Positions 1,320 through 43,614 are shown, counted from the stretch's first letter. The stretch: 64,000 nucleotides of DNA from Alkalispirochaeta sp. (GCA_965242725.1 CBDESZ010000016.1:96001-160000), one strand, 5' to 3'. A program made the numbers and translations. The notes: generated from the sequence alone by a model not told the origin.

Positions 1320-1518
1320 CGCTCTCATCCTCCAACTCAAAGAGCTCTTCGACGGTGCATTGAAAAACCCGGGCGAGCTGAAGCGCCAGAACGAGGGATG
1401 GCAAGTACCTCCCCCGCTCGATGGAGATGATCGTCTGCCGTGTAACCGCAGTGCGCTTCGCCAGCTCGACCTGAGTCATTCCCTTTTCTTCCCGTCGCAC
1501 CCGCACATTGTTAACCAT
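1312..1518 (-). CDS. XRE/Cro-C1 HTH transcriptional regulator
   Basis: 68 aa 'MVNNVRVRREEKGMTQVELAKRTAVTRQTIISIERGRYLPSLVLALQLA'. Confidence 0.92.
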   Translation of the reverse strand: MVNNVRVRREEKGMTQVELAKRTAVTRQTIISIERGRYLPSLVLALQLARVFQCTVEELFELEDESDE

Positions 1519-1533
1519 AGGAACCACACCACC

Positions 1534-1598
1534 ATGTAAAGCCTGCTTTACATCGATGATACACCGGGCACGGGGGAATGTAAAGGCTGTTTTACATT
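1534..1598. promoter_or_regulatory. Two ATGTAAA-N6-TTTACAT operators overlapping the XRE promoter
   Basis: Palindromes at 1534-1553 and 1578-1597; minus-strand TTTACA(1584-1579)-17-TATCAT(1561-1556). Confidence 0.8.
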
Positions 1599-1604
1599 TT
1601 TCCG

Positions 1605-3551: not shown

Positions 3552-4423
3552 TCTTCTCAGCTCCGCAAGAAATGCCCGGGCGGCGGGGGACAGGTACGCG
3601 TTCCTGCGATAAATGACACCCACTTCATTCCCGGGAAGCCACGGGAGGCGCCGTTCGGTGAGGCGTCCGCTTTCTATCTCATGGACGGCGTTGAGCCGGG
3701 GTATGACGGAAACGCCCAGCCCGATTTCGGTGTAGCGCTTGATCACCTCAATGCTGCCCACCCGCATCACCGTCGCCGGCTCAACTCCGCCTGCACCGAT
3801 GTCCCGCAACAGACGGTTGTGGCTGACGCTGCCGCTGTGGAGGAGCAACAGCGGGTAGCCCGCAATGTCCCCGGGCGCCACCTTTTCCTTTTTCGCCAAC
3901 GGGTGATCGGGCCGGCAGATGAGGACATCCTCCCGGTCGTAAAGCTTCTGTGACTCCAGTCCGGCCCCCGACACGGGCAGCGTCACAACGCCAAGTTCAA
4001 CCTGACTCGCCACCACCCACCTTGCCACTTCACTGGAGTGGCTGTTGGCAAGGTGAATCGCGACGCCGGGATAGGAGTTCTGGAAGGAGGCCGATCACAT
4101 CGGGTAATACGTGAAGGCAGTTGCTGTCGTTGGTACCTATTTCCACCGTACCGCGCCGAAGCCCCTGAAGCGCCTCAATTTCGTCCCCTCGTATGGCCAA
4201 TGAGATCGAGCACCTCTTCCGCCCGGGCGAGAAGCATCTTTCCCGCCGCCGTCAGGACGAGGCTCCGGGGCTTCCGCTCAAAGAGCTTCTCGTCCAGTTC
4301 ATCTTCCAAGGCCTTTATCTGGGTGCTCACGGCGGGCTGTGTCAAATGTAGTTGCTGCGACGCCCTGGTAAGATTCCCTTCTCTGGCAACGCAGACAAAA
4401 CTTCGCAACTGGTACAGTTCCAT
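3516..4423 (-). pseudogene. LysR family regulator with two +1 frameshifts (pseudogene or sequencing error)
   Basis: HTH 'MELYQLRSF...LHLTQPAVSTQIKALE' (4175-4423) and substrate-binding domain (3516-4028) join into one frame if one base is removed at 4185-4188 and one at 4091-4092. Confidence 0.85.
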
Positions 4424-4517
4424 TTATCCTCCTCGGCCTCTGCAACGTGCGCCCCTGACGGGGCGGACGTGATGGGTGCTGCCCGTACGGTCGTCATGAC
4501 TGCCACGATCGCCTAAC

Positions 4518-4565
4518 TATAAATTATTTTAATGATAATCATTAAAACTTTCAATTTTACTAATG
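4518..4565. promoter_or_regulatory. LysR T-N11-A boxes overlapping a perfect 21-bp Fur-box-like palindrome
   Basis: TAA-N7-TAA at 4520-4532; TTTTAATGAT-A-ATCATTAAAA at 4527-4547. Confidence 0.65.
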
Positions 4566-4604
4566 GTCCGGAAGACCGTATTCTCTGATTGAAAGGAGTT
4601 CTTC

Positions 4605-5639
4605 ATGGAACGTGTAAAGGTCGGTATTAACGGAATGGGTCGGATCGGACGCAACCTCTACCGGGCAATTATGACGGAGTACGCGGATACACTGCAGGTG
4701 GTCGCCGTCAACGACCTCTTCGACACCGAGACGATTGCGAGGACACTTCGCCGGGACTCGGTGTATGGACGTTTTCCCGTGGATGTGCGGGCACTGGGTG
4801 ATGACTCCATCCAGGTCGGTGAGGAGACGGTGCGCGTGTTCCGTGCAGCCAGGCCGGCGGAGATCAACTGGAACGAGACGGGTGCGGAGGTTGTCTTTGA
4901 GTGTACAGGCATCAACCTGACGTCGGAGGCCACCAGGGACCATCTCGGCGGCAGCGTGGACCGGGTGGTTCTGAGCGCGCCACCCAAGGACGGCACACCG
5001 ATGTTTGTCATCGGCGTCAACGACCACGAACTTTCGGGCCGGGAGGAGATCGTCTCCAACGCGAGCTGCACCACCAACTGCCTCGCCCCGCTGGTGAAAG
5101 CTGTTGATGACGCTTTCGGCATCGTCGGAGGATTGATGACGACGACCCACGCGGTCACGAGCGGGCAGAAAACGGTGGACTCCGCCGGAAACGAGCGGGC
5201 GCGGTCGGCCCTGAACAACATTATCCCCACATCCACCGGCGCCGCCCGGGCGATCGGGAAGGTCATAAAGCACCTGGAGGGGAAACTGAACGGATCATCC
5301 CTGCGCGTACCGGTGACCACCGGATCGGTGGTGGAAGCGGTCTTCACCGTGCCGGGACGACGGACCACGGAAGACGTCATCGCGGCACTCCGGGCCGGTG
5401 CGGCGGCCATGAACCTCCGCAGCCCCATCGGACGCGTCCTTTATGTGGGAGACGACTATCAGGTGAGCGCCGACGCCATCGGATCAACCTGGAGTTCCAT
5501 GGTTCCCGGTAACGGCATCATGGCTGTCCCCGCGGGGGGTGAAACGATGATAAAAATCACCTCCTTCTACGACAACGAGCTGGGATACGCCCATCGTCTT
5601 GCCGAGTTGGGAATCCTCGTCGCCGGACAACGGGGGTAG
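4605..5639 (+). CDS. gap: Type I glyceraldehyde-3-phosphate dehydrogenase family protein (divergent)
   Basis: 'GINGMGRIGR', catalytic 'SNASCTTNCLAP', 'IIPTSTGAA', 'YDNELGY'. Confidence 0.9.
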   Translation: MERVKVGINGMGRIGRNLYRAIMTEYADTLQVVAVNDLFDTETIARTLRRDSVYGRFPVDVRALGDDSIQVGEETVRVFRAARPAEINWNETGAEVVFECTGINLTSEATRDHLGGSVDRVVLSAPPKDGTPMFVIGVNDHELSGREEIVSNASCTTNCLAPLVKAVDDAFGIVGGLMTTTHAVTSGQKTVDSAGNERARSALNNIIPTSTGAARAIGKVIKHLEGKLNGSSLRVPVTTGSVVEAVFTVPGRRTTEDVIAALRAGAAAMNLRSPIGRVLYVGDDYQVSADAIGSTWSSMVPGNGIMAVPAGGETMIKITSFYDNELGYAHRLAELGILVAGQRG

Positions 5640-5694
5640 TCCGGGCCTGCTGTCCACGACCGTGCGGGTGAGACGGAACGGCGTCCGGCGCGAC

Positions 5695-6492
5695 TTACCT
5701 GCGGGAGGAAAGGGTGCGTTTTATCGACACATTGAGGATGGAGCCCTCGTCGTCCCTGCGCACGAGAGTACTGAGGCTTGTATTCAATTCCTTCAGGAGG
5801 ACGTCACATCCCGCGAAGAGCGCCCGTTGCCCGTCGATATTGCCCGATGTCGATGGATAGTCGTAGGACATCGTCGACGTCTGGGTGACACGATAGCCTC
5901 CCGCGGTGTAGCCGTAGGTGCCGAAGAGGGACAGAATGAAGGGCCCGATATCGCCGGTAAACTGCACGCCGCCGTAGACGGTGCCGGTGGTCGTCGTCGT
6001 TTGCACGGTCGTATCGTCGTCGATCCACGTTGTCGTCATGGGAACCCATTGCGGTATGGTGACCGTCATGGACATGAGGCCGATATCTCCGCCGGCTCCG
6101 CCAAAGAGATACGCGTCGAGACGGCGCGTGTCCGCCGCTTCCACAACGGCGGTACATCTCAGGGGGAGCTGGACGCCGACAAGATCCATGCGGTCACCGA
6201 CAAGTATCGCGCCGCCTGCGGTCGCGCTCAATAAGAGGCGGTCGAGGGGGCTCTCCTGCATCGTGCCATAGACACCGAGGCCGCCGATACGGAATGCGGT
6301 GTTTCCGATCTCCCGTTCAAGGAACAGTCCCTGGAGTCCCGCCGTTACGATCTGCTCGCCCCGGACGATCCGGGGATACCCGACGGGCGGCGGCGCAACG
6401 TCAAATACGGCGACCGTCTCATCGGGGTACGCCAATACACTAAAGACCACGCCGAACACACCGAGCCAGAAGAAGCGAAAAAGACGTGCCAC
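5695..6492 (-). CDS. Hypothetical exported protein, possible beta-barrel
   Basis: Signal peptide-like N-terminus; alternating Gly/aromatic strands. Confidence 0.5.
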   Translation of the reverse strand: MARLFRFFWLGVFGVVFSVLAYPDETVAVFDVAPPPVGYPRIVRGEQIVTAGLQGLFLEREIGNTAFRIGGLGVYGTMQESPLDRLLLSATAGGAILVGDRMDLVGVQLPLRCTAVVEAADTRRLDAYLFGGAGGDIGLMSMTVTIPQWVPMTTTWIDDDTTVQTTTTTGTVYGGVQFTGDIGPFILSLFGTYGYTAGGYRVTQTSTMSYDYPSTSGNIDGQRALFAGCDVLLKELNTSLSTLVRRDDEGSILNVSIKRTLSSRR

Positions 6493-31959: not shown

Positions 31960-34194
31960 ATGAATATCGGTGACATCGCGACCACCGTTCTGATACTTAT
32001 CGGAGCGGGGGGCATGGCGATGGCTCTCGGCATTACGAGGGCCATTCGCACGGCGGTGGCGGCGCACCATTACGCACGACGGTGGCGCACCCTCTCAATT
32101 CTGATGGGGTTCTTTCTCGGCTGTTACCTCTGTACCGTTGTGCTTATCCTCTTCGGCCGTTCCGACGTCCTGCTCTTGCTGACGGGAATCGTCTTTCTCT
32201 TCGGCGCGGCCTTTGTTCTTCTCGTCGTTCGCCTTGGACTGACCACAATCGAAGATCTCACGGAATCGGAGAAGCGATACCGGGGCCTCTTCAACGAGGT
32301 TCCCGTGGGCCTCTATCGGACGACCCCCGCATCGGGCTTCGTCGATGCAAATCCGGCCCTCCTCGAAATGCTCGGCTATACCAGCCTTGAATCGCTTCGC
32401 GCAGTCCCGACGGACAGCTTCTACACGGACCCTGCCGAGCGCGCGCGGTGGCGAACCCTCCTTGAAGAGACGGGTACCGTCCGCGATTTTGAAGTGAGTC
32501 TCACCCGCGCCGACGGCGAGGTCATCTGGGTCAGGGACAACGCCCGGGCGATCCGCGGCGACGACGGCGTTCAGTTTCAGGGTGCCATAGAGGACGTGAC
32601 GGAACGAAAACTCGCGGAAGACGCCCTCCGGGCGGCGAAAACGGCCGCGGAAAACGCAAACCGCGCCAAAAGCATCTTCCTCGCAAACATGAGCCATGAG
32701 CTGCGGACGCCTCTCAACGCGATCATCGGATACAGTGAGTTGTTAATGGAGGACGCCGAGGAGCTCGGTCAGGAAGACTTCATTCCCGACCTCAACAAGA
32801 TCAAGGTCGCGGGAAAGCACCTCCTTGAGCTGATCAACGCGATACTCGACCTCTCCAAGATCGAGGCGGGGAAGATGCAGCTCCACCTGGACACCTTCAA
32901 TATCGCGGAAATGGTGCGGGACGTATGCACCACCGTTGACCCCCTCATGACCAAAAACAGCAACGCCCTCGTCGTGAACTGTCCCGAAGAAATCGGCGCC
33001 ATGCGGAGCGACCTCACCAAGGTGCGACAGGTCCTCTTCAACCTGCTCAGCAATGCGTCGAAATTCACGGAACACGGCACGATCACCGTCGACGTCGAGG
33101 CGGACGACTCCGGCGAAAGGATCATTATTCGCGTCACCGATACGGGGATCGGCATGTCCGAGGAACAGGTGGACCGCGTCTTTGAGGAGTTTGCCCAGGC
33201 GGACAGCTCCACGACGCGGCACTACGGCGGTACCGGCCTCGGCCTCTCCATCAGCCGCCGCTTCTGCCGGCTCATGGACGGAGAACTCTCCGTTTCCAGT
33301 CAGGAGGGCAGCGGTTCAACCTTTACCGTCACCCTGCCGCGAACCTTAACGGATATGAGCGCACCCGCCCAAAGCGCCGAGGGCGGTGCGGAAGGGCGCT
33401 CTCCCGATATTTTTCCCGCCGGAGCAACGTCGGTACTTGTCATTGACGACGACCCGGCGGTGCGGGAACTCATGTCGAGATTCCTTGCAAAGGAAGGTTT
33501 TCAGACGATCGCCGCCGCCGACGGCGCCCAGGGACTGGCGAAGGCGAAGGAGCTCAAGCCCGACATCATCACCCTTGACGTCATGATGCCCGGTATCGAC
33601 GGGTGGTCCGTATTGCGGTCACTGAAGGATGAGGAGGAGACGGCGTCCATTCCGGTGGTCATGCTCACCATCGTGGACGATCAGAACCTCGGCTTTGCCC
33701 TGGGAGCCGCCGACTACCTCTCCAAGCCGATCGACCGCAACAATCTCCTCAAAGTGCTTGGAAAACACTGCTGCACTCCCGAGCGCTGCACCGTGCTTGT
33801 CGTCGACGACGATCCGGAGACGCGGGAAATGCTCCGCCGTACCATGGAGAAGGAGCACTGGACGGTGGCGGAAGCGGTCAACGGCCGGGCAGCTCTCGAG
33901 CTTATCGCCAGGCAGACACCGGAACTGATCGTTCTCGATCTCATGATGCCCGAGATGGACGGTTTTGAGTTTGTGACCCAATTGCGGGCACATGAAAGGT
34001 GGCGTACCATTCCCATAGTGGTGATAACCGCGAAGGAGTTGACCCTGGAGGAACGGGAACAGCTCCGGGGAGAGGTGCAGCGAATCCTCCAGAAGGGCGG
34101 GCACACGAGAGACGATCTGCTCGCGGAACTGCGGACTCTCGTCAAGGCCACGGTGGTAACCGGGTGCGACGAGAACGAATCCGCACAGGGATAA
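31960..34194 (+). CDS. Hybrid sensor histidine kinase (TM-PAS-HisKA-HATPase-REC-REC)
   Basis: 'FLANMSHELRTPLNAIIG', 'NLLSNASKFT', 'DTGIGM', 'GGTGLGL', receivers 'LDVMMPG' and 'LDLMMPE'. Confidence 0.95.
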   Translation: MNIGDIATTVLILIGAGGMAMALGITRAIRTAVAAHHYARRWRTLSILMGFFLGCYLCTVVLILFGRSDVLLLLTGIVFLFGAAFVLLVVRLGLTTIEDLTESEKRYRGLFNEVPVGLYRTTPASGFVDANPALLEMLGYTSLESLRAVPTDSFYTDPAERARWRTLLEETGTVRDFEVSLTRADGEVIWVRDNARAIRGDDGVQFQGAIEDVTERKLAEDALRAAKTAAENANRAKSIFLANMSHELRTPLNAIIGYSELLMEDAEELGQEDFIPDLNKIKVAGKHLLELINAILDLSKIEAGKMQLHLDTFNIAEMVRDVCTTVDPLMTKNSNALVVNCPEEIGAMRSDLTKVRQVLFNLLSNASKFTEHGTITVDVEADDSGERIIIRVTDTGIGMSEEQVDRVFEEFAQADSSTTRHYGGTGLGLSISRRFCRLMDGELSVSSQEGSGSTFTVTLPRTLTDMSAPAQSAEGGAEGRSPDIFPAGATSVLVIDDDPAVRELMSRFLAKEGFQTIAAADGAQGLAKAKELKPDIITLDVMMPGIDGWSVLRSLKDEEETASIPVVMLTIVDDQNLGFALGAADYLSKPIDRNNLLKVLGKHCCTPERCTVLVVDDDPETREMLRRTMEKEHWTVAEAVNGRAALELIARQTPELIVLDLMMPEMDGFEFVTQLRAHERWRTIPIVVITAKELTLEEREQLRGEVQRILQKGGHTRDDLLAELRTLVKATVVTGCDENESAQG

Positions 34195-34200
34195 CGGGAA

Positions 34201-34575
34201 ATGGCCAGGATATTGATCGTAGAAGACAACGAGATGAACCGGGACATGCTCTCCCGGCGCCTTGCCCGGCGGGGTTATGAAATCGAGACCGCCGTCGACG
34301 GCAGCGAGGGCGTCCGCGCCGCCCGGGAGCGACACCCCGACCTCGTGCTCATGGATCTCAGCCTTCCGGTCATGGACGGGTGGGAAGCGATCAGAATTCT
34401 CAAGGGCGACGACGCTTCAAAGGCGATACCGGTGATCGCCCTCACCGCCCACGCGCTGGTAACGGACCGTGAAGAGGCGCTTGCAACGGGAAGCGACGAG
34501 TTCGAGACCAAGCCGGTCGACCTGCCCCGGCTGCTTGAGAAGATCGAACGGCTCCTCGATGGCCGGAGCACGTGA
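34201..34575 (+). CDS. Single-domain response regulator (DivK-like)
   Basis: 'ILIVEDNEMN...LMDLSLP...IALTAHA...TKPVD'. Confidence 0.93.
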   Translation: MARILIVEDNEMNRDMLSRRLARRGYEIETAVDGSEGVRAARERHPDLVLMDLSLPVMDGWEAIRILKGDDASKAIPVIALTAHALVTDREEALATGSDEFETKPVDLPRLLEKIERLLDGRST

Positions 34576-35639
34576 TGAATGTCGAACAACCATATTCGAT
34601 CCTCGTCGTCGACGACAACGAGATGAACCGGGACGTCCTCGTGCGACGGTTGTCGCGGCAGGGTTACGCCACGGAAACCGCGGAAGACGGACGCGCCGCG
34701 CTTGACCGCATCGTCGCTGAACCGGGAAAATTCGACCTGATCCTCCTGGACATCATGATGCCCCGCATGACCGGTTTTGAAGTGCTTGAGACGCTCAAGG
34801 ACGACACGGCCCTCCGGCACATTCCGGTCATCATGATCTCCGCAATGACCGACCTGGAAAGCACGGTCCGCTGCATTCAGCTGGGAGCGGAGGATTATCT
34901 CCCCAAACCTTTTGAACCGACGCTGCTGAAGGCGCGCATCGGTGCTTCCCTGGAAAAGAAACGACTCCGCGACGTCGAGCAGGCATACCTGGCACAGCTC
35001 AGTGAGGAACGGGCGCGCTCCGAGCGGCTGCTCCTCAACATTCTTCCCCGGCAGATCGCCGAGCGCCTCAAGGCGGAGGAAGGCACAATCGCCGACTACT
35101 TCCCGGAGGCGTCGGTCCTGTTTGCGGACATTGTCGATTTTACGAGCCTCACATCCGAGGCGGCACCGGAGGAACTGATTCGTGTCCTGAATGAGATATT
35201 CAGCGAATTTGACCGCCTTGCCGTCACTCACGGCCTGGAAAAGATAAAGACCATCGGCGACGCCTATATGGTCGTCGGCGGCATACCCGAGCCCAACCCC
35301 CGGCACATCCACGAGGCGGCGCTGATGGCGCGGGAAATGCAGCGGACCGTCACATCCTACACCGGCTATGCCGGCAGGTCCTTTTCAATACGCGTTGGAA
35401 TGAATGTGGGCCCCGTCATCGCCGGCGTAATCGGAACAAGCAAGTTCATATACGATCTCTGGGGCGACACGGTAAATGTAGCCAGTCGCATGGAAGCGCA
35501 GGGAGTGCCCGGCGAGGTTCAGGTGACCGAAGCGGTACGCAACCGACTGGCCGACCGCTTTCACGTTACGGAACGGGGAAAGCTGTATATCAAGGGCCGG
35601 GGCGAGATGACCGCATTTCTGCTGGGTGAACCGAAATAG
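34572..35639 (+). CDS. Receiver + class III adenylate cyclase
   Basis: REC domain, then 'LFADIVDFT', 'EKIKTIGDAYM', 'YDLWGDTVNVASRME'. Confidence 0.93.
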   Translation: MMNVEQPYSILVVDDNEMNRDVLVRRLSRQGYATETAEDGRAALDRIVAEPGKFDLILLDIMMPRMTGFEVLETLKDDTALRHIPVIMISAMTDLESTVRCIQLGAEDYLPKPFEPTLLKARIGASLEKKRLRDVEQAYLAQLSEERARSERLLLNILPRQIAERLKAEEGTIADYFPEASVLFADIVDFTSLTSEAAPEELIRVLNEIFSEFDRLAVTHGLEKIKTIGDAYMVVGGIPEPNPRHIHEAALMAREMQRTVTSYTGYAGRSFSIRVGMNVGPVIAGVIGTSKFIYDLWGDTVNVASRMEAQGVPGEVQVTEAVRNRLADRFHVTERGKLYIKGRGEMTAFLLGEPK

Positions 35640-35664: not shown

Positions 35665-36411
35665 TCACTCCGCCCGGGCGACCACGTAAAGCCGTCCCGG
35701 TTCAATGGAGCCTACCCGGGCTTGTCCCGCCCAGTCACTCCTCATTATCGCGTCTTCAAGCTCCTCCTTCAGAAATCCCCGCCGTATGGAGAGGGCGCCA
35801 TCGTCGGGGGCAAAACTGCGGCGCAGAAACAGAGGCGCCGCGACGCGGTAGGCGGTGTAGGAAAGGCGGGAACGTTGAAGGTCATTGCACAACAGCGTGC
35901 CCGAGCAGAGCCGTCGACTTGTATTGAAAAAGGCAACGAGTTCCTTCGCCGACAGGTGGTGGAGAAAATGGTTGGAAAAGACGTAGTCGTAGGGGGAAGT
36001 GGCATCCGGGAGATCAAGGACGGAGCGCTCCACGACGGACACGGTCGGATAGTCCGCACACGCCCGCCTGGCGAACTCCGCAACCCGGGGATCGGCCTCA
36101 CAACAGTCTACATGCATGACCGCACCGGAGGTGTTCCTGGCCGCGCGGACGAGATATCGGGCGATATCACCTCCGCCTGCGCCCGCATCAAGGAGGCGGA
36201 CACTTCTGAGCCCCCTCCTGCGGATGTCTTCAAGCAAATACTGCTTCAGGAGGTATCGGGATCGGGAGACCAGGCGATTCAACAGCGGAAACTGCCGCAG
36301 TGTCCGCCGCAGGCGCCCGGGATCGCTGTGAAGGTCGTCCATACGTTCGACCGCGTCCAATCTCCCGGCAAGGTCGGGCCACCATGGTATCCGTTCCGGC
36401 GGTCTTGTCAT
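35665..36411 (-). CDS. SAM-dependent methyltransferase (type III PKS-associated)
   Basis: 'ERMDD', 'LLDAGAGGGD', 'SNHFLHH', 'NDLQRS', 'DGALSIRRGF'; ATGA-coupled to the PKS. Confidence 0.88.
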   Translation of the reverse strand: MTRPPERIPWWPDLAGRLDAVERMDDLHSDPGRLRRTLRQFPLLNRLVSRSRYLLKQYLLEDIRRRGLRSVRLLDAGAGGGDIARYLVRAARNTSGAVMHVDCCEADPRVAEFARRACADYPTVSVVERSVLDLPDATSPYDYVFSNHFLHHLSAKELVAFFNTSRRLCSGTLLCNDLQRSRLSYTAYRVAAPLFLRRSFAPDDGALSIRRGFLKEELEDAIMRSDWAGQARVGSIEPGRLYVVARAE

Positions 36412-37535
36412 ACCGCTTCAAGAAGCGCCGATTCCACCGTCAGTCCGGGACCGAAGGCCGCCGCAAAAACGCGTCCACCGTCGCCCCGTTCCAGAATTCG
36501 CCGCAGCACAAAGAAGATCGTCGCCGAGCTCATGTTCCCGTATTCCCGCAGCACCTCATAGGAGTCGGAGAACGCCTCCTGGTGGAGGTCAAGCGCCGCG
36601 GCGGCGCGGTCAAGGATTGCCCTGCCGCCCGGATGAATCGCCCAGGTATCGACGGAACGGCGGTTGTGCCCTGACTTTTCCAGGAGGCCGTCCACGATGT
36701 CACCGATGTTCTTCTGTATGAACTTCGGTACATAGGCGGAGAGGCGCATATCAAAGGCGATGGGACCGATGCGCCACGCCATGTCCGACTCACTGCCGTC
36801 GATGACACGCCCGGCGTAGTCGATCAACCTGAGGCCCCGTGCGCCGTCCCTCCGGTGGTCGGGAAGACCCGCCGGTCCCGTCATCAGTGCGGCCGAGACG
36901 CCGTCGGCAAAGAGGGCGTTTGCCACCATCATGTCCGTCTCCGCCTTCAGCTGCAGATGGAGCGAACAGAGCTCGGCATTTACAATGAGCACCCTGGCTC
37001 CGGGATCTGCGGTGCAGATACTGTGTCCGAGTTTGAGAGCGGGAAAGGCGGCATAACAGCCCATAAATCCGATATGAAAGCGGTGTACCGTCGGTGCAAG
37101 GGGAATTTGACGCATGATGTCAAAGTCGAACCCCAGCGCCGAAAACCCTGTGCAACTGACGGTAATGAGATGGGTGATATCCTCTGGGTCCATATCCTCC
37201 CGTCGGCGCAGGAGCGTCCGGACCGCCTCGAGTGAAAGAGTGCGGGCGTGGGTGATAAACAGATCATTCCGCTGTTCCAGCCCCGGTTCGGGCTCAAATT
37301 CGGCATTTGGTGCGTAAAAGGTGTGTTCTTCGGGCGGGCGGTGGTAGTCATCCACCACGGTGTGTCTCTTTTCGATTGCAGTACCTTCGTAAATGCGATT
37401 CAAAAAGCGTTTCTGCGCATCGGTATACCGGGAGAGGCCGGTGACAAACTGCCGCGCTTCTTCCTGTGTATAGGATTGGGACGGAACCGCGGTGGCAATA
37501 TCAGTAATGAATACCGGCGAGTTCGAGTTTGACAT
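36408..37535 (-). CDS. Type III polyketide synthase (chalcone synthase-like)
   Basis: Catalytic triad 'FMGCYAA' (Cys), 'AIHPGG' (His), 'YGNMSSAT' (Asn); 'AFGPGLT'. Confidence 0.96.
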   Translation of the reverse strand: MSNSNSPVFITDIATAVPSQSYTQEEARQFVTGLSRYTDAQKRFLNRIYEGTAIEKRHTVVDDYHRPPEEHTFYAPNAEFEPEPGLEQRNDLFITHARTLSLEAVRTLLRRREDMDPEDITHLITVSCTGFSALGFDFDIMRQIPLAPTVHRFHIGFMGCYAAFPALKLGHSICTADPGARVLIVNAELCSLHLQLKAETDMMVANALFADGVSAALMTGPAGLPDHRRDGARGLRLIDYAGRVIDGSESDMAWRIGPIAFDMRLSAYVPKFIQKNIGDIVDGLLEKSGHNRRSVDTWAIHPGGRAILDRAAAALDLHQEAFSDSYEVLREYGNMSSATIFFVLRRILERGDGGRVFAAAFGPGLTVESALLEAV

Positions 37536-37576
37536 GAAAAAAAAGTAACGGTAACTTCACCGCGAGTACAGCAGGA

Positions 37577-38407
37577 ATGGACCGGAACAGCTACAGACTC
37601 TCCGATCAAAGTGCCCGCGAAATCCTTGGTCATCCGGAGACAAAACGGGAGTATAACCGCCGCCTCTTTTCCACCGTAGCCCCCCGGTACTATCTGGCGA
37701 CACGACTGCTCTCCTTCGGTCGCGACCAGGCGTGGAAACGGACGCTCGTCGGGATGTGCGCCGAAGCCCTGCCGGCACAACCGCGCCGGATACTCGATAT
37801 CGCCTGCGGGACCGGAGATCTCACCCTCGCCCTTTCCTCCCGCTTTCCCGAAACAGAAGTGGTCGGGGTCGATTTGAATCCCCATATGCTCGCAGAAGCG
37901 CGACGCCGACGGGAATCGGCACCGCAGTCGGACGGCTTGGTGCACTTCATGGAAGGAGACATGACGACCCTCCCGTTCCCGGACGGGTCATTTGACCTTG
38001 TCACCGGCGGGTATGCACTGCGGAATGCCCCGGACCTCGCTGCCGCTCTCGGTGAAATACGACGCGTTCTGGTCCCGCAGGGTGTTCTGGGAATACTCGA
38101 TTTTTCCCGCTCTCCCCGCCCCGCCGTGGCGGCCCTGTCGCGCGCCCTTCTTTCTTTTTGGGGAAACCTCTGGGGTATCGTCCTCCACGGTGACGGAGGC
38201 GTATATGGATACATCGCCCGCAGTCTCGCCCACTTTCCCGACAGGAAGTCCCTGGCACGACTTCTCTCCCGCGCAGGTTTTCCCCGGCTGACCAGAAAGC
38301 TCCGCATGTTCGGCATGCTTGAGGTCATCGTCGCGACCGAAGATCACCGCCTACCTACGGGCCCACCGACGCCCTCCGACAGGCCCTCCATCGGGCCCCG
38401 CGAGTGA
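37577..38407 (+). CDS. UbiE/MenG-family quinone C-methyltransferase
   Basis: 'LFSTVAPRY...LLSFGRDQAWKR', 'LDIACGTGD', 'LPFPDGSFD', 'YALRN', 'YGYIARSL'. Confidence 0.88.
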   Translation: MDRNSYRLSDQSAREILGHPETKREYNRRLFSTVAPRYYLATRLLSFGRDQAWKRTLVGMCAEALPAQPRRILDIACGTGDLTLALSSRFPETEVVGVDLNPHMLAEARRRRESAPQSDGLVHFMEGDMTTLPFPDGSFDLVTGGYALRNAPDLAAALGEIRRVLVPQGVLGILDFSRSPRPAVAALSRALLSFWGNLWGIVLHGDGGVYGYIARSLAHFPDRKSLARLLSRAGFPRLTRKLRMFGMLEVIVATEDHRLPTGPPTPSDRPSIGPRE

Positions 38408-39711
38408 AGACTCCGCCGGAAGGGAATGGTCCGCATCGTGAAGTGGGAGGCGAGAAATCCCGCCGCTGCCGACCGAAGCAGCACCGCGATGACGATACTC
38501 CGGAGGGCCGACGGAAAGCGCCCCCGCAATGAACCGATGCGGGTCCCCAGGGCGGCGCGTCGCGCCGCGGCGCGACCGGAACGCATACGGGCACTCCGGT
38601 AGACCCGGTGTATCTCTTGTAACTCGAGCGGGCGGACCGATCCGGCGTCGCCCCCCTTTGCACGCCATTCCCGGACCAACAGGTCCGCCAACAGCTCCGC
38701 ATCGGCAAGACCGCTGTTCATACCCTGCCCGCCGATGGGTGACATCGTGTGGAGTGCGTCACCAACGAGAAAGCAGCGACCGATCCCGGCACGACGGGCA
38801 ATGCGGGTTACCGGTATGAATGAACTCGTCCAGGTGAACTTTTCGCTTATGAGCGCATAGCCCGTACGTTCCTGTACATGCTGCCGCAATAGGTCCCCGA
38901 TACGGCTTGTATCCGGCGTGCCTTCGGGTCGCCCGTCCGATAGCCCGACTGATCGCTGCCTCTCGGGAGGTCGGAATCGGCCGGGAAGCTGGGCGATCCA
39001 CCGTCGCCTGCCGTGGGTGAGCGGAAAGGATTCCACCGCTCCCCGGGGAGTAAACCAGAGGTGTGCATCGTTACCGAAACCGCTGTGATCGACGGTGTCC
39101 CCCATGATGAAGCGGTAGGGCATGTAACGGGGAACCCCGGCGACACCCGCATGTCGGGCGCCCTGCCCGTGAAAGCCGTCGGCCCAGACTATCCAGGATG
39201 CGTTGAGGACCCGTTCTTCTTCGCCGGAACGGCCGGAACCCAACGCCCCGGACGCATCCGCCCGGCGCAGGAGAACTCCCGGCGCGTCACTATTCCGCTC
39301 GCCGAGGCATGCCGGACGATCACCCGTCATCCCAACCACCTCCGTACCCTCCAGAACGGGCACGCCCAGCGCGGCCAGACGGCGGCGCAGCAGATCTTCT
39401 GTTTCTACCTGAGGCATCACCAGCACATAGGGGTGACTGCCGGAAATACCGGAGAAATGAAGTTGTCCGAGAGATCTGTACCCATCGTGGACGAAGGCCC
39501 TTCTCACCGGAAGACCCCGCTCCACCATGGAGCGTCCCAGACCGATTCGATCAAGGATCTCCAGCGACGCCGGCATGACGCCGATCGCCCGGGACCCTTC
39601 CCGCGGTCCCGACCGCCGTTCCACCACAACGGTATCCAGCCCGCCCGCGGCGCACAGCGCCGCAACGGTCATCCCGACGGGTCCGGCGCCGACCACTACC
39701 AGTTCGTGCAT
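38344..39711 (-). CDS. FAD-dependent monooxygenase (aromatic hydroxylase family)
   Basis: 'VVVGAGPVG', 'WADG', 'LVGDALHTMSPIGGQGMNSGLADA'. Confidence 0.9.
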   Translation of the reverse strand: MHELVVVGAGPVGMTVAALCAAGGLDTVVVERRSGPREGSRAIGVMPASLEILDRIGLGRSMVERGLPVRRAFVHDGYRSLGQLHFSGISGSHPYVLVMPQVETEDLLRRRLAALGVPVLEGTEVVGMTGDRPACLGERNSDAPGVLLRRADASGALGSGRSGEEERVLNASWIVWADGFHGQGARHAGVAGVPRYMPYRFIMGDTVDHSGFGNDAHLWFTPRGAVESFPLTHGRRRWIAQLPGRFRPPERQRSVGLSDGRPEGTPDTSRIGDLLRQHVQERTGYALISEKFTWTSSFIPVTRIARRAGIGRCFLVGDALHTMSPIGGQGMNSGLADAELLADLLVREWRAKGGDAGSVRPLELQEIHRVYRSARMRSGRAAARRAALGTRIGSLRGRFPSALRSIVIAVLLRSAAAGFLASHFTMRTIPFRRSLHSRGPMEGLSEGVGGPVGRR

Positions 39712-39754: not shown

Positions 39755-40687
39755 CTACTCCAGCACCATCACCCTGTTTTTACCGGCGGCTTTGGCGTGG
39801 TACATCGCCGTATCGGCACGGTTGACGATCTGTTCCCACGAGTTGGTTTCATCGTCGGTGGGCAGGGTTTCACTCCACTCCTCAGCCTCCACGCCGCCGC
39901 TGACGGTGAGGCGGATGACTTTGCCGGGAGAGACGGGAATGCTGAGTGCCTCGATTGCGGCCCGGCATTTCTCGGCGACCTTGAGCGTCTGATTACGATC
40001 CACTTCCGGACAGAGAACGAGAAACTCCTCACCCCCCCAGCGGCCGCACACATCGGTCGTCCTGAGGACGGAGCGAAGCGTTTCCGCCACGGCGATGAGG
40101 GCGTTATCTCCGGCCTTATGTCCGAAACTGTCGTTGATACTCTTGAATCGATCGATATCGAATACGATGATCCCGTAGGACCGCTTGTTCCGGGCACACC
40201 GGGCGGATTCAATGGTAATGCGCTCAACCATATCCCGGCGGTTCGGCAGATCCGTGAGGGTGTCGGTCCGGGCCATTCGTGCCAGCTGCAGCGTGGTCTC
40301 CCGCAACTGCGCCTGATATCCGTCACTGATGGACATGATCTTGTCGAGCTGCTTCTGGAGACGGAGATAATTCTTTGCAAGCGTCGCGACATCCTTGTCC
40401 AGATGGCGCTTCAGACGTTCCGCGAGCGAAACGGCGAGGCTGGACTTTGTCTGTGGCGACCCCTTCGTGCTGCCCTGGGCGGGAACAATCGTCGGTTGTT
40501 CCACCGTTCGGATCAGTGCGTGGTACTTGTCGCTGATATCGAGAATTTTGGAAAAGCGCGAGGAAATCCTGATATACGTTTCCGCCAGATCACGAAACTC
40601 CGCGACGGAAACCGTTTCATCGGTCCCCTGCCCGGACAACTCGGACAGCCGTACCCTGAGATTCTCGATGCGCTCGTCGTCGTTCAC
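39755..40687 (-). CDS. siaD: Diguanylate cyclase SiaD
   Basis: 'DTLTDLPNRR', 'RWGGEEF', repeated N-terminal ISD(K/G)Y helix; last gene of sia operon. Confidence 0.87.
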   Translation of the reverse strand: MNDDERIENLRVRLSELSGQGTDETVSVAEFRDLAETYIRISSRFSKILDISDKYHALIRTVEQPTIVPAQGSTKGSPQTKSSLAVSLAERLKRHLDKDVATLAKNYLRLQKQLDKIMSISDGYQAQLRETTLQLARMARTDTLTDLPNRRDMVERITIESARCARNKRSYGIIVFDIDRFKSINDSFGHKAGDNALIAVAETLRSVLRTTDVCGRWGGEEFLVLCPEVDRNQTLKVAEKCRAAIEALSIPVSPGKVIRLTVSGGVEAEEWSETLPTDDETNSWEQIVNRADTAMYHAKAAGKNRVMVLE

Positions 40688-41073
40688 GAGTACGCTTCTT
40701 CCGGAGTCACCGGAACCGTTTCAAAGGGAATTTCAAGATCCTCAAGAAACTCCTCGGCCAGCTCGAGAGCGCGTTCATTCTCCCGGTCATAGAGCCAGCG
40801 CACACGGACCGTTCCGCCCGCTTCGGCGCGTTCACTCACCACATCAAGAATGTCGAGCATGCATTTGGTGCTGCTTGAATTCATATACCGGATATTGATC
40901 TCCAGAATAAAGGAGTCAATCCTGGGCAGTTCCGTCTGAAGCCACTCAAAAACGGGTTCGTAAAACTCAAAGGAGTTCTCCGGATAGGATTCACCGGTAA
41001 TTGTCAAAATATGTAGTTTCTCATCGTATGTGACGGTGGGACTCGATGTCGTCCCTTCAATTAAAAGCATCAC
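40684..41073 (-). CDS. siaC: SiaC phosphoprotein (DUF1987)
   Basis: 'GESYPENSFEFYEPVFEWL...YMNSSSTK...ELAEEF'. Confidence 0.9.
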   Translation of the reverse strand: MMLLIEGTTSSPTVTYDEKLHILTITGESYPENSFEFYEPVFEWLQTELPRIDSFILEINIRYMNSSSTKCMLDILDVVSERAEAGGTVRVRWLYDRENERALELAEEFLEDLEIPFETVPVTPEEAYS

Positions 41074-41615
41074 GATTCTCCTGCCACCGACACTTCAAGT
41101 ATGAAGTAGTCATATTCATCATCCACGGCGTCAAAGTGGTACTCCATAGGCGCCGTTGCGCGGCGGGCAATGTCCAGGAGCCCCAGACCGGCACCGGTAG
41201 CCTCCGGTGGATGGTCACGCCGGAGCTGCTCCTTGTATGCCTTCCGCAGTCCCTTCTTGTCCAGTCCGCTCAACGTGTCCAGCCTGGACTTCAGATCGGG
41301 AACATCACTTTTCAATATATAGTTGCCCGCTGAAACGGTGTAGCGTTTATCTTCATAACCGATGACAACGATCGCCGCGTCCTTTCCTCGTTTCTTCAGC
41401 TCTCTGCGAACCGAGTAGTTCCGGACATTCTGCGTCTGTTCGACATAGACGGCAAAAACGTCGATGACCTGCTGGGGGGCGATCTTTTCCGCCTGCAGGT
41501 ACGTCTTTGCCGCGTTTCCAAGCTCTTCAATGAGACTGTGCGTGAAAGCACCGTTGAAGGCGATGAGAATTCCCTGTCGATCAAAAATGGTACGGAGCTG
41601 TGCGATATCCTTCAC
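41070..41615 (-). CDS. siaB: SiaB family kinase
   Basis: 'FAVYVEQTQNVRNY', 'VSAGN', 'GAGLGLLDIAR'. Confidence 0.9.
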   Translation of the reverse strand: MKDIAQLRTIFDRQGILIAFNGAFTHSLIEELGNAAKTYLQAEKIAPQQVIDVFAVYVEQTQNVRNYSVRRELKKRGKDAAIVVIGYEDKRYTVSAGNYILKSDVPDLKSRLDTLSGLDKKGLRKAYKEQLRRDHPPEATGAGLGLLDIARRATAPMEYHFDAVDDEYDYFILEVSVAGES

Positions 41616-41628
41616 AATTTCCTGCCTT

Positions 41629-43614
41629 TTATGTATCGCGATCAGTTTCGCGTAATATCGGAGAGAAGGCAAGAAGGATCATATCGTCTTTGGGGCGTAG
41701 ATCTCCCCGATACTCATCAAGGGCGCGGGCCACTTCATGTTCCTGTTCCGACAGGGGCAGGGAGCAGGAACCGTGGAGAATCTCCTTCAGTCGTCGCCGT
41801 CCCAGCCCGTAGCCCCGTTTTCCGCCGGGCAAATCGAGGACGCCGTCGCTGAAGAGATAGAAGACGGAATTTCCCCCTGCCGGGACCGTCGTGTGCGACA
41901 GCGAGGGTGTTCGATCGGTGGACCGGAACCCGAGGCGGACGCGGTTTCCTCCAACGTGAACCATCTCTCCCCCGGAAGCGTAGAGGAGCGGCAACCCCGC
42001 CCCGGAGAAATCGATGGTGCCCGTTGATTCGTGGTATCGGCACAAGGCGATGTCGAAGCCGTTGTCCAGATGGGCAACGTCGTCGGAGCCTCGGAGACTG
42101 TCCTGAACGTATTGGTGGAGGCGGACGAGCATTTCCCTCGACAGGGTATTCACCGTTGACGTTTCAATTACCCGGTTCAACTGCGCTCCCACGAGCATCG
42201 TCATAAACGCACCGGGAATACCGTGTCCCGTACAATCGACCACGGCGGCGCAGAAACCGTCTTCCATCGGTCGCACAAAGGCAAAATCACCGCCCACGGT
42301 GTCCAGGGGGCGATGAATGATGAAACTGTCTCTGAAGTGGAGTTCACGGTCGGTCCGGGACGGCATGACCGAGTCCTGTATCAGTTTTCCGTATCGTATC
42401 GATTCAAGAATCCGCTCCTGGCTGCGCCGGAGTTCCTGCGTCCGTTCCGCAACCTCCCGCTCCAGATTTTCCGTGTAGTTCCCGACCTGTTCGGTCATGC
42501 GGATAAAGGTGTCGGAGACGTTTCCGATTTCGTCGGGTCGGGAGCGATCAAGTTCCACGTCAAAGTTGCCCCCCGCGACCTGGAGTGCCGCCTCCGCCAA
42601 CGTGCCGAGGGGTCGCAGGATTTGCCTGTCCAGCAGCAGGACAACAACCCCCGCAAGTGCGAGAAGGGAGAGAATCATCATGGCAAGGAGGGGAAGAAAG
42701 TCCCGGGCACCCATGATCTGCTTGTCGTCAACCAGAACCAGGTTATACCAGTCCAGTTCCGGAATATGCCCCACCGCTGCGGTGACCGACACATCACCAA
42801 CCTTCAGCGGAAGAGTGACCGGCGTCGATCCGACTGTGGAAAACGCCTCTTCCAGGCGGACCCTGTCTTCACCGCGGGAAAGGAGGGACGGCAGATCGAT
42901 GCGATCTTCATCTCTCGTAACCCGGGCGTTGTGATCGATGATGGACCGGTCGGGGTGGGCGAGAATCTGGGCGTCGCTGTTCACCACGATGGACGTCACG
43001 CCGGAACCTCCTTCGGCAACGAGCGTATCCAGCACCTCGCTGAGGTCCAGCCCCGTTCCTGCGGCGCCAATGGTCGTACCGTCGGAGTCCCGTACAAGAC
43101 TGTTGATCCAGACGCGGACCTCCTGGAGAAAGGCGTTGTAGTCGACGTTGATCCAGAAATTCCGATCCGACTCCAGGGTGGCAAAAAACCAGCGGTCCCG
43201 GGGATCATCCCGTTCCATCACCGTCAGCTCCCGCCCTGCGGTTTGCGGCGTTTCCACATAGTACGCCAGCGTCTCGGCAATGGCGACAAAATAGGAGTTG
43301 TCGCTGAAGAGTCGACGATAGCTGTCCAGCTGCGCAGCGGCGGCCCGTTCCGCCGCTGCGTCGTCGGGGTTGTTCATCCATTGAATAACCGCCGGATCGT
43401 CTGCGAGTTTCAGGCTCAGTGCGGCATCCCGTTCAACGACCGTCAGAATGCGTGAGCGTTCGAGAAGATTCCGGGAGACGGCAAAACGGTCCACATATTC
43501 CCGGGTGATTCCGTCGATGGTAAAGAGAAAAATGATACCTGCGGCGACGGCGGTAACGAGATACAATGCGCCGATGGCGACGATAAACCGTCGTTTCAGG
43601 GAACTTCGAATCAT
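41629..43614 (-). CDS. siaA: SiaA membrane PP2C/SpoIIE phosphatase (Cache-HAMP-PP2C)
   Basis: Two TMs, 'DRWFFATL...WIN', HAMP 'DEIG', 'VGGDF', 'DCTGHGIPGA', 'SDG', 'DDM'. Confidence 0.9.
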   Translation of the reverse strand: MIRSSLKRRFIVAIGALYLVTAVAAGIIFLFTIDGITREYVDRFAVSRNLLERSRILTVVERDAALSLKLADDPAVIQWMNNPDDAAAERAAAAQLDSYRRLFSDNSYFVAIAETLAYYVETPQTAGRELTVMERDDPRDRWFFATLESDRNFWINVDYNAFLQEVRVWINSLVRDSDGTTIGAAGTGLDLSEVLDTLVAEGGSGVTSIVVNSDAQILAHPDRSIIDHNARVTRDEDRIDLPSLLSRGEDRVRLEEAFSTVGSTPVTLPLKVGDVSVTAAVGHIPELDWYNLVLVDDKQIMGARDFLPLLAMMILSLLALAGVVVLLLDRQILRPLGTLAEAALQVAGGNFDVELDRSRPDEIGNVSDTFIRMTEQVGNYTENLEREVAERTQELRRSQERILESIRYGKLIQDSVMPSRTDRELHFRDSFIIHRPLDTVGGDFAFVRPMEDGFCAAVVDCTGHGIPGAFMTMLVGAQLNRVIETSTVNTLSREMLVRLHQYVQDSLRGSDDVAHLDNGFDIALCRYHESTGTIDFSGAGLPLLYASGGEMVHVGGNRVRLGFRSTDRTPSLSHTTVPAGGNSVFYLFSDGVLDLPGGKRGYGLGRRRLKEILHGSCSLPLSEQEHEVARALDEYRGDLRPKDDMILLAFSPILRETDRDT

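Follow-up and report, generated by a model that had tools for sequence, protein, structure and literature searches.

The question raised by this locus is what four adjoining genes of a spirochaete make together, and whether one of them, a homologue of the quinone methyltransferase UbiE/MenG, takes part in that pathway or is simply the ordinary MenG of the cell. The genes were found in a 64,000-nucleotide stretch of Alkalispirochaeta sp. DNA (hereafter the window), and they encode a type III polyketide synthase (PKS), two methyltransferases and a flavin hydroxylase. The first-pass annotation proposed that they turn a fatty-acyl starter into an alkylquinone.

Organization of the locus

All four open reading frames are intact, and reading-frame and profile searches agree with the first-pass annotation on the identities of the genes, their coordinates, the gap of 41 bp and the overlap of 64 bp. 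On the minus strand, the type III PKS (375 aa, 36408-37535; PF00195, 86.4 bits; PF02797, 84.3 bits), a predicted alkylresorcinol synthase, is followed by a PRK06202-like class I SAM methyltransferase (248 aa, 35665-36411, minus strand; PF13649 (Methyltransf_25), 43.2 bits; PRK06202, 169 bits against a cut-off of 243). The two genes overlap by 4 bp on the same strand, in line with the coupling that had been proposed for them. Across a divergent intergenic region of 41 bp between the two start codons (37536-37576), in which promoter and terminator scans returned no more sites than in shuffled sequence, lies the gene of the UbiE/MenG/Coq5-family methyltransferase (276 aa, 37577-38407, plus strand; PF01209, 135 bits; TIGR01934, 171.4 against 158.35), a member of a PKS-linked clade. 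Its 3' end overlaps by 64 bp with that of a class A FAD-dependent aromatic monooxygenase gene (455 aa, 38344-39711, minus strand; PF01494, 147.2 bits). This overlap is due to non-conserved C-terminal tails, since relatives align only to residues 1-253 of the UbiE homologue and 1-439 of the hydroxylase; at one related locus (L001) 10 bp separate the two gene ends.

Conservation of the four genes

The order hydroxylase>, <UbiE, PKS>, methyltransferase> is kept in 6/6 close relatives, contig ends truncating two of the loci (L002 and L003). The four-gene arrangement is seen again in several further spirochaete families, where PKS identity is about 50% and the flanking genes differ, which argues that the linkage goes beyond chance; the synteny that the first-pass annotation had suggested checking extends from the close relatives into these families. 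A phylum sample of 401 genomes held 10 other PKS-bearing genomes, and at their PKS loci the UbiE gene is adjacent in 5, 2 kb off in 1 and absent in 4. The coupled methyltransferase lies directly downstream of the PKS in 5/6 close relatives (at L002 the contig ends first) and at 8/10 phylum-sample loci, that is, at 13 of the 16 spirochaete loci. The hydroxylase adjoins UbiE in all six close relatives and at five of the ten phylum-sample loci.

It had been remarked that no described example with a dedicated UbiE, or from a spirochaete, was known. The combination is not confined to spirochaetes, as a UbiE relative adjoins a type III PKS in 16/80 metagenome loci in various gene orders, and genome surveys have already recorded a second methyltransferase in type III PKS clusters (PMC8086630, PMC10896814). 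All four gene types occur together in 2 of these 16 metagenome loci, and many of the metagenomic PKS-UbiE pairs have no neighbouring hydroxylase. At one locus a U32-family gene (a weak match, 35.5 bits) lies between PKS and UbiE; the oxygen-independent ubiquinone hydroxylases belong to this family, so the hydroxylation step may be kept there.

The polyketide synthase and its predicted tailoring enzymes

The catalytic triad of the PKS (Cys160, His301 and Asn334) is present, and it is kept in 25/25 full-length homologues checked. Trp254 aligns with the single G/W site (ArsB-W281/ArsC-G284) that separates PDB entries 3vs8 and 3vs9, which we take to be ArsC and its G284W mutant; 23 of the 25 homologues have Trp at this site and 2 have Tyr. 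Trp is reported here in the resorcinol formers ArsB, FtpA, SrsA, PKS10 and PKS11, and PKSs of the Trp type are associated with long-chain alkylresorcinols (PMC5916927). The enzyme, to which the source genome holds no second match, is thus predicted to be of the resorcinol-forming type. Its best curated match, DpgA, scores far below the cut-off (150.6 against 425), and its best solved relative is 4b0n, which is not known as an alkylresorcinol synthase.

For the coupled methyltransferase no relative of solved structure was found. It shares motifs with the mtr product of Gimesia maris, as judged from a by-eye translation of the supplement of PMC10896814, and we predict that it fills the place of the canonical phenol methyltransferase in the pathway. 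The FAD monooxygenase matches TIGR01988 (Ubi-OHases) with 89.3 bits, under the cut-off, and among solved structures it is nearest to aromatic polyketide hydroxylases, rifampin monooxygenase and PnpA; the predicted role is that of a ring hydroxylase creating the 1,4-quinol.

A UbiE homologue of a PKS-linked clade

The UbiE-like protein covers positions 3-221 of the 223 of the TIGR01934 profile, over the subfamily cut-off, and stays below every UbiE/MenG equivalog cut-off, the best being NF001244 (175.2 against 216). Its best solved relative is Coq5 (4obw), and a ring C-methyltransferase is predicted. Its identities to the UbiE homologues of the phylum are bimodal, with the PKS-linked copies at 40-48% and 174-207 bits and the rest at 39% and 115 bits or less. 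A tree of 106 homologues places every one of the 26 PKS-linked rows in a single clade of 54 rows (SH-aLRT 99), and the 19 housekeeping spirochaete rows stand across a branch with SH-aLRT 99 from the protein of the window; housekeeping copies adjoin MenA-like genes in three genomes (G063, G051 and G060). The clade is not exclusively PKS-linked, for no PKS is present at 7 of the 17 clade loci whose flanks extend 2.5 kb or more on either side, and in one spirochaete genome (G057) a clade member occurs without any PKS. By tree and identity, the homologue belongs to the PKS-linked clade, separate from the housekeeping MenG of spirochaetes. The first-pass annotation had named a housekeeping MenG that is not conserved with the PKS as the finding that would overturn it; synteny and the clade split instead indicate a gene that is conserved with the PKS and is not an ordinary MenG.

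Proposed pathway

On balance, we favour reading the locus as a conserved four-gene phenolic-lipid cluster whose likely product would be a methoxylated, C-methylated 6-alkyl-1,4-benzoquinol or quinone, in which a head resembling that of a ubiquinone precursor carries a fatty-acyl-derived tail. The type III PKS would extend a fatty-acyl starter with malonyl units, and ring closure through aldol condensation would give a 5-alkylresorcinol or alkylresorcylic acid. The PRK06202-like enzyme would then methylate a phenol oxygen, and the FAD monooxygenase would hydroxylate para to the remaining hydroxyl to give 2-methoxy-6-alkyl-1,4-benzoquinol, the alkyl analogue of the natural benzoquinol substrate of UbiE, to which the UbiE-clade enzyme would add the ring C-methyl. 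The last three steps may follow another order, and the UbiE-type enzyme may even act on the resorcinol itself, given the many metagenomic PKS-UbiE pairs that have no hydroxylase beside them. The product would be a membrane redox-active lipid, with respiratory electron carriage or membrane protection as its possible functions.

The same enzyme classes may also yield something other than a redox-cycling quinone, namely a methylated alkylresorcinol or a hierridin-like dimethoxy-alkylphenol, with each methyltransferase capping one position. This lipid would have a structural, protective or signalling part in the membrane. Hierridin B is the product of a PKS, a methyltransferase and an FAD oxidoreductase (PMC6836626, PMC8086630), clusters with two methyltransferases have been reported, also from 'Saltatorellus ferox' (PMC10896814), and such lipids are known in antibiotic tolerance and cyst walls (PMC10896814, PMC7064976). 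The hydroxylase-free metagenomic pairs and the little quinone-dependent machinery seen in the source genome are consistent with such a product, yet we think it rather unlikely, since the hydroxylase is conserved with UbiE in 11/16 spirochaete loci and the U32-family gene, weak match though it is, occupies the place between PKS and UbiE at one locus. To our knowledge, moreover, UbiE/MenG/Coq5 enzymes of characterised function methylate a ring carbon of quinols, which again points away from a non-quinone lipid.

Quinone genes elsewhere in the genomes

The source genome is 92% complete, so gene absences are provisional. The first-pass annotation had suggested looking for men, mqn and ubi pathways, and no ring-building genes came to light: MenB and MqnA exceed the cut-off in 0/13 cluster-bearing genomes, and MenD and UbiD were not found in the source genome. 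Few quinone-using enzymes were found in that genome either, where cytochrome bd, heme-copper oxidase, NrfD and VKOR were searched for and not found, the NuoH homologue sits in an Mbh/Mrp-like cluster and an FrdAB-like pair has no recognised membrane anchor. The earlier statement that there is no prenyltransferase holds for the cluster, with none inside any of the 16 spirochaete loci and no UbiA-family gene in the window, and fails for the genome, whose only PF01040 matches lie on two contigs (C18 and C25) other than that of the window (C16). Two MenA-like genes are present, and one shares its operon with genes for an NDH-2-like flavoprotein and a YceI-like lipid-binding protein. The NDH-2-like/MenA-like/YceI operon is found again in G401, the closest relative, 5.4 kb from the cluster, and G401 also carries an SdhA-SdhB-SdhE-like-MenA operon.

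These prenyltransferases mean that the sole UbiE could also serve a prenylquinone, and they lend weight to an account in which the UbiE homologue is the MenG of the cell. The MenA-like enzymes would prenylate scavenged 1,4-dihydroxy-2-naphthoate (DHNA), UbiE would methylate the demethylmenaquinone, and the adjacency of the PKS would be incidental or regulatory. The failure to find a DHNA pathway fits scavenging, both G401 operons fit a prenylquinone, and no other gene of the source genome gives a full-length TIGR01934 match; the PKS-linked copy is likewise the top TIGR01934 match in 12/12 other cluster-bearing genomes and, as in the source genome, the sole recognisable UbiE in 11 of these. We nevertheless consider this account improbable. 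Besides its place in the PKS-linked clade, apart from the housekeeping copies, the gene keeps its PKS neighbour in a number of families and with varying gene order. A TIGR00751 match is present in 6/12 other cluster genomes, the other 6 having none at 1e-8, and the UbiA-family genes of G067, G077, G133, G140 and G175 stand in unrelated contexts, for example beside COX2 or sugar transferases. The one exception to the sole-UbiE pattern, G401, has a second UbiE-type gene, cut by a contig end, that follows polyprenyl synthase, MenA-like and Rce1-like genes, so that MenG function there does not call for the PKS-linked copy.

Very improbable is a scheme in which the PKS supplies the head group of a new isoprenoid quinone, a MenA-like enzyme prenylating the polyketide ring, perhaps decarboxylatively on resorcylic acid, before the cluster enzymes finish it: MenA-like genes without a DHNA or futalosine pathway found, the operon near the G401 cluster, reports of a prenyltransferase within type III PKS clusters (PMC8086630) and the polyprenyl synthase, MenA-like, MMPL and tocopherol-cyclase-like genes standing together in G077 would suit it, but no spirochaete cluster contains a prenyltransferase, half of the 12 cluster genomes have no MenA-type match, and the Trp254 type of PKS goes with long-chain alkylresorcinols (PMC5916927).

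A further proposal is one that we regard as improbable and hold only as a speculation. The polyketide cluster would be the only source of quinone rings in these spirochaetes, its product would feed the NDH-2-like/MenA-like/YceI operon and fumarate-reductase-type enzymes, directly as an alkylquinone or after prenylation, and sister clusters with a U32-family gene instead of the flavin hydroxylase would make the same quinone without oxygen. If true, respiratory quinones would have a third, chorismate-independent route of synthesis.

Comparison with known systems

Two assignments were rejected. The Agq-type cluster combines a type III PKS with a UbiA-family prenyltransferase, and it was ruled against by the location of PF01040 matches on C18 and C25 only and by the prenyltransferase-free spirochaete loci. 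A housekeeping Spirochaetota MenG was ruled against by the tree split (SH-aLRT 99) and by identities of at most 39% to the MenA-associated copies.

With ArsB/ArsC of Azotobacter vinelandii, the PKS shares the site of resorcinol-versus-pyrone closure, at which it has Trp; the Ars PKSs are partnered by dedicated type I fatty acid synthases and are not known to have tailoring methyltransferases or a hydroxylase. The UbiE/MenG/Coq5 enzymes are matched over nearly the whole length of PF01209, and the predicted substrate differs from the UbiE benzoquinol only in its tail, whereas the gene here adjoins neither MenA nor another isoprenoid-quinone gene and belongs to its separate clade. CepAB of 'Entotheonella' likewise joins a phenolic-lipid type III PKS to a methyltransferase that has MenG among its best Swiss-Prot relatives, but the identity of CepB to MenG is only 26-28% at poor coverage, and the cep cluster, as described, has neither a hydroxylase nor a second methyltransferase (PMC7064976).

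Precedents for the chemistry are srsABC, pkqABC and hidABC (PMC9927152, PMC6836626, PMC10896814). The hidABC genes of picocyanobacteria (hierridin) and the planctomycetal mtr-fdo-t3pks operon have three enzyme classes in common with the cluster, and their PKSs were shown to make alkylresorcinols, the end product there being a methylated phenol and not a quinone (PMC6836626, PMC10896814). The Mtr of G. maris is apparently of the same type as the coupled methyltransferase (by-eye translation). The gene order there is MT-FDO-PKS, unlike that of the spirochaete cluster, no UbiE-family gene is described, and by eye the G. maris FDO resembles flavoproteins of the geranylgeranyl-reductase type, as opposed to the PF01494 hydroxylase of the spirochaete cluster.

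The analogy that the first-pass annotation drew to SrsABC and the mycobacterial polyketide-quinone operon holds at the level of enzyme classes: SrsABC of Streptomyces griseus and PkqABC (the pks10 operon; Mycobacterium smegmatis, Streptomyces sp. MNU77) share with the cluster a resorcinol-type PKS, a SAM methyltransferase and a flavin hydroxylase or oxidoreductase. They convert an alkylresorcinol to a methoxy-methyl-alkylbenzoquinone, and the mycobacterial quinone is reported to carry electrons at low oxygen (PMC9927152, PMC5916927). The spirochaete cluster adds the divergently encoded UbiE/MenG-family methyltransferase, and its hydroxylase lies beyond the UbiE gene, outside the PKS operon, the tailoring enzymes being compared by class only. 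Its ring C-methyl would come from SAM and not, as in Streptomyces griseus, from a methylmalonyl extender, and no menaquinone ring pathway is recognisable in its spirochaete host. Taken by its genes, with the product predicted from them, the cluster appears to be a new variant of the Srs/Pkq/Hid-type clusters that lead from alkylresorcinols to alkylquinones.

Gene Content and Surroundings of the Cluster

The cluster is real, conserved and intact. Its four open reading frames were recovered at the coordinates that the first-pass annotation had given, and the gene names proposed there agree with Pfam and NCBIfam matches. A PRK06202-like methyltransferase (35665-36411, minus strand; 248 aa; PRK06202 169 bits, cut-off 243) overlaps by 4 bp the type III PKS (36408-37535, minus strand; 375 aa; chalcone/stilbene synthase domains 86.4 and 84.3 bits). 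The start of the PKS lies 41 bp from that of a UbiE-like methyltransferase on the opposite strand (37577-38407, plus strand; 276 aa), which scores 171.4 bits against the MenG/MenH/UbiE subfamily model TIGR01934 (cut-off 158.35). The fourth gene encodes an FAD monooxygenase of the class A flavoproteins (38344-39711, minus strand; 455 aa; PF01494, 147.2 bits), and its 3' end overlaps the 3' end of the UbiE-like gene by 64 bp.

No equivalog was passed by the PKS, for which DpgA was the best curated one (150.6 bits, cut-off 425), and the UbiE-like methyltransferase passed its subfamily cut-off while failing every equivalog cut-off. The nearest solved structures of the hydroxylase are aromatic polyketide hydroxylases, rifampin monooxygenase and PnpA. 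The coupled methyltransferase has no relative among solved structures; a word-based search returned 19 relatives, the remoter ones from Microbacteriaceae. An ESM Atlas search gave generic methyltransferase and UbiE clusters only. Scanning for promoters and terminators yielded counts at the level of shuffled sequence. A foreign-island origin was considered and rejected, the GC content of the cluster (0.60-0.64) not being distinctive against 0.53-0.62 elsewhere in the window.

The cluster is flanked in the window by signalling genes. On one side, a phosphatase, a kinase, a phosphoprotein and a diguanylate cyclase are encoded by a SiaA-SiaB-SiaC-SiaD-like operon (39755-43614, minus strand), which has the orientation of the FAD monooxygenase gene and stops 43 bp upstream of it; the SiaB-family model NF038262 alone was passed (193.4 bits, cut-off 85), and the SiaA, SiaC and SiaD models stayed below their cut-offs. 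On the other side (31960-35639, plus strand), genes for a hybrid PAS histidine kinase, a single-domain response regulator and a response regulator-adenylate/guanylate cyclase fusion converge on the downstream end of the cluster.

Predicted Activity of the Type III PKS

Cys160, His301 and Asn334 of the PKS are in place. Comparison of residues 225-300 with solved structures retrieved 3vs8 and 3vs9, which differ at one aligned position (G versus W); in the window's PKS this site is occupied by Trp254. We take the two structures to be Azotobacter ArsC and its G284W mutant, in which the substitution presumably diverts the enzyme from pyrones to resorcinols. Among 25 full-length PKS homologues of related loci, 23 have the Trp too, and Tyr replaces it in the metagenome locus L086 and in locus L075. 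According to one study, Trp at the equivalent position is essential for resorcinol formation by ArsB and is conserved in FtpA, SrsA, PKS10 and PKS11 (PMC5916927). Because of this site and its conservation, an alkylresorcinol or alkylresorcylic acid is the best guess for the predicted PKS product.

Distribution and Conservation of the Four Genes

The host genome (4.34 Mb in 34 contigs, 92% complete) is one of 11 among the 401 genomes of the Spirochaetota sample with a PKS match at E <= 1e-30, and the nearest PKS homologues come from Spirochaeta and Alkalispirochaeta-like metagenome-assembled genomes. Synteny of the four genes, which the first-pass annotation had named as a check, is kept in all six close relatives and at several loci of the phylum sample. 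The six relatives, whose PKSs are 73-84% identical to that of the window, have the hydroxylase and the PKS-methyltransferase pair on either side of the oppositely oriented UbiE gene (hydroxylase>, <UbiE, PKS>, methyltransferase>); locus L002 stops short of the methyltransferase and L003 is truncated on both sides. Around the cluster in these six, the genes that flank it in the window were absent save for one weak GGDEF match; the SiaABCD-like neighbourhood is not kept in relatives.

In the phylum sample, ten further genomes carry the PKS, at 42-53% identity. Three loci (L036, L038 and L039) have the window's four-gene arrangement, and two more (L028 and L043) have it as far as their short contigs show. 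In L040 a hydroxylase-UbiE pair lies 2 kb from an inverted PKS-methyltransferase pair, L041 carries the classical three genes without UbiE, L042 only the PKS and methyltransferase, and L037 the PKS alone. On the 2.8-kb contig of L032 the PKS and methyltransferase are present, with no UbiE within 835 bases upstream.

The UbiE Homologue and Housekeeping MenG

With the window's UbiE as query, matches were obtained in 158 of the 401 genomes, and these fall cleanly into two groups. The PKS-linked copies, together with one unlinked copy in genome G057, show 40-48% identity and 174-207 bits, apart from a lower-scoring copy in G140 that is split over two contigs. All remaining copies reach at most 39% identity and 115 bits, and in G063, G051 and G060 a low-scoring copy lies directly beside a MenA-like gene.

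The window's UbiE was aligned with its best homologues, metagenome contigs were scanned with this alignment, and the best 80 of 586 matches were kept, a sample that favours the clade of the window's UbiE since the alignment was seeded on it. By PKS profile, a type III PKS adjoins the UbiE relative in 16 of these best 80 loci. Gene orders vary among the 16, including PKS-UbiE, UbiE-PKS and PKS-hydroxylase-UbiE; L086 has the order PKS-hydroxylase-UbiE-methyltransferase, and L090 and L046 repeat the window's own arrangement.

From 106 homologues a quick maximum-likelihood tree (LG+G4) was computed, with SH-aLRT as its only support measure; seven rows whose matched part contained in-frame stops had been removed beforehand. 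One side of a branch with support 99 is made up of the 19 housekeeping spirochaete copies, and all 26 PKS-linked rows fall inside one 54-row clade (support 99, branch length 0.51); none of them occurs in a further group of 33 metagenome rows. A PKS is present at 10 of the 17 clade loci that have 2.5 kb or more of sequence on each side, at 18 of 29 when 1.2 kb is enough, and at 0 of 8 loci of the other metagenome group. The clade is enriched for PKS linkage, not pure. The first-pass annotation had named a housekeeping MenG not conserved with the PKS as fatal to its proposal. The UbiE homologue is not the ordinary MenG; it belongs to a separate clade and is conserved with the PKS.

Some unlinked members of this clade adjoin YceI-like and MMPL or LolA-like lipid-handling genes. 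In a soil-metagenome subclade (L048, L081 and L084, at about 4180-5720 in each) a YceI-like gene and an MMPL or LolA-like gene precede the UbiE relative and there is no PKS, and in the near-identical L077 a PKS is inserted between UbiE and a bestrophin-like gene. The G057 copy (L134 6111-7301, contig C129) has an N-terminal extension of about 165 aa and adjoins IspG (GcpE); a search of G057 for a PKS gave no match at E <= 1e-30. In L054 a 417-aa gene (634-1887, plus strand) lies between the PKS and the UbiE relative, with a weak Peptidase_U32 match (35.5 bits) and no NCBIfam match; U32 is the family of the oxygen-independent ubiquinone hydroxylases UbiU/UbiV.

Quinone-Related Genes in the Host Genome and Its Relatives

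The first-pass annotation had also suggested looking for men, mqn and ubi pathways. In the 92% complete host genome, where absences are provisional, neither MenB nor MenD was over cut-off, and MqnA/MqnD and UbiD were not found; nor were cytochrome bd, heme-copper oxidase, NrfD or VKOR. The PKS-linked UbiE is the only match over the TIGR01934 cut-off. Two genes on contig C6 were rejected as further copies, as they match only the N-terminal two-thirds of that model and score best with a phospholipid N-methyltransferase model. The genome also has an FrdA-FrdB-like pair, for which no anchor was recognised, and an isolated SdhB-like gene. The sole NuoH homologue was rejected as a sign of quinone-reducing complex I because it lies in an Mbh/Mrp-like membrane complex with MnhB/MbhE, NuoK-like, antiporter-like and 30-kDa subunits (L126 4202-10852, contig C20), neighbours that suggest a ferredoxin-linked, not quinone-linked, complex.

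The claim that no prenyltransferase is present holds for the four genes but not for the genome, which has two MenA-like UbiA-family genes, both below MenA cut-offs. One of the two prenyltransferase genes belongs to an operon on contig C18 (L044 7353-10272), where it stands with genes for an NDH-2-like pyridine-nucleotide-disulfide oxidoreductase and a YceI-like lipid-binding protein; no DHNA or futalosine pathway was found in the genome.

In all 12 other cluster-bearing genomes the PKS-linked UbiE is the top TIGR01934 match, the remaining matches being partial and at most 81 bits, and MenB was over cut-off in none of the 12 and MqnA found in none. MenA (TIGR00751) matches occur in six of them at 1e-8, two being over cut-off. 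PF01040 genes were present in all five of G067, G077, G133, G140 and G175, in contexts unrelated to each other, such as next to COX2 in G140 and next to sugar transferases in both G067 and G077. G077, itself a bearer of the PKS-UbiE cluster, also has a row of genes (L130 587-5713, contig C160) for a polyprenyl synthase, a MenA-like prenyltransferase, an MMPL transporter and a tocopherol-cyclase-like protein, which may represent a prenylated chromanol pathway.

In the closest relative, G401, the NDH-2-like/MenA-like/YceI operon has orthologues (58-83% identity) on the contig that carries the cluster, at a distance of 5.4 kb from it (L157 9872-12854, contig C19); the oxidoreductase gene is split into two frames there. 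A separate operon (L158 1791-6260, contig C72) encodes SdhA, SdhB, a CCG-domain SdhE-like anchor and MenA. The best match of this anchor is the 8-methylmenaquinol:fumarate reductase anchor (185.8 bits, cut-off 500). G401 gave no MenB or MqnA match. It also carries a second UbiE-type gene after polyprenyl synthase, MenA-like and Rce1-like genes, truncated by the contig end, of which the host genome has no counterpart.

These gene sets bear on whether the PKS-linked UbiE is instead the housekeeping MenG of the cell. Such a role would fit the host genome, where the gene is the only UbiE and MenA-like genes exist, and a dual role there is possible. Nevertheless, this explanation is weakened by the position of the PKS-linked copies apart from the housekeeping ones, by a linkage that is kept in several gene orders and by the second UbiE-type gene in G401.

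Proposed Pathway

The simplest account of the cluster remains a phenolic-lipid pathway of the Srs/Pkq/Hid type with one added step, and we infer all four steps. The type III PKS would make an alkylresorcinol, which the coupled methyltransferase would then O-methylate; the flavoprotein would hydroxylate the para position, and the UbiE-clade enzyme would C-methylate the ring. The putative intermediate, 2-methoxy-6-alkyl-1,4-benzoquinol, would be the benzoquinol substrate of UbiE with an alkyl tail replacing the polyprenyl tail, and this likeness offers a chemical reason for recruiting the UbiE family. The steps may come in another order, since many PKS-UbiE pairs in metagenomes have no hydroxylase nearby. 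The predicted product is plausible.

Significance

To our knowledge, polyketide quinones have so far been an actinobacterial curiosity, and in actinobacteria they sit beside a normal menaquinone pool. Here, such chemistry would be combined with an enzyme clade taken over from ubiquinone/menaquinone biosynthesis, in genomes with no recognisable ring-building pathway and no other UbiE save the cut second copy of G401, and many uncultured bacteria have the PKS-UbiE pairing as well. A product that works as a quinone would add to the electron carriers known from bacteria, account for the use of quinone-type enzymes by some 'quinone-less' anaerobes, and make genome-based calls of 'menaquinone methyltransferase present' misleading for the PKS-linked clade. 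If it is only a protective lipid, the cluster would tidily illustrate how a methyltransferase of primary metabolism can be drawn into a small natural-product pathway locus.

Comparison with Published Clusters

A search of openly accessible literature, with most hits judged by title and opening of the abstract, found neither a published UbiE-family partner of a type III PKS nor a published spirochaete type III PKS cluster; PMC5552033, on Rathayibacter, and PMC6305584 proved unrelated. Searches on Alkalispirochaeta and quinones returned only unrelated papers, and those on alkylresorcinol, C-methyltransferase and type III only the planctomycete paper and fungal work. Clusters in which a PKS gene is accompanied by one methyltransferase and one FAD oxidoreductase gene are well documented; examples of these three-gene clusters are srsABC, the mycobacterial and Streptomyces pkq operon and the cyanobacterial hidABC, besides 58 of 96 planctomycetal PKS genes (PMC9927152, PMC5916927, PMC6836626, PMC8086630, PMC10896814). 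Surveys mention variants that have two methyltransferases and a single one that includes a prenyltransferase (PMC8086630, PMC10896814), and CepB of 'Entotheonella' is weakly MenG-like (PMC7064976). In a by-eye translation from the supplement of PMC10896814, G. maris mtr has motifs in common with the window's coupled methyltransferase. By this reading, which depends on a by-eye motif comparison, it is the UbiE-type gene, not the coupled methyltransferase, that would be the addition to the three-gene cluster.
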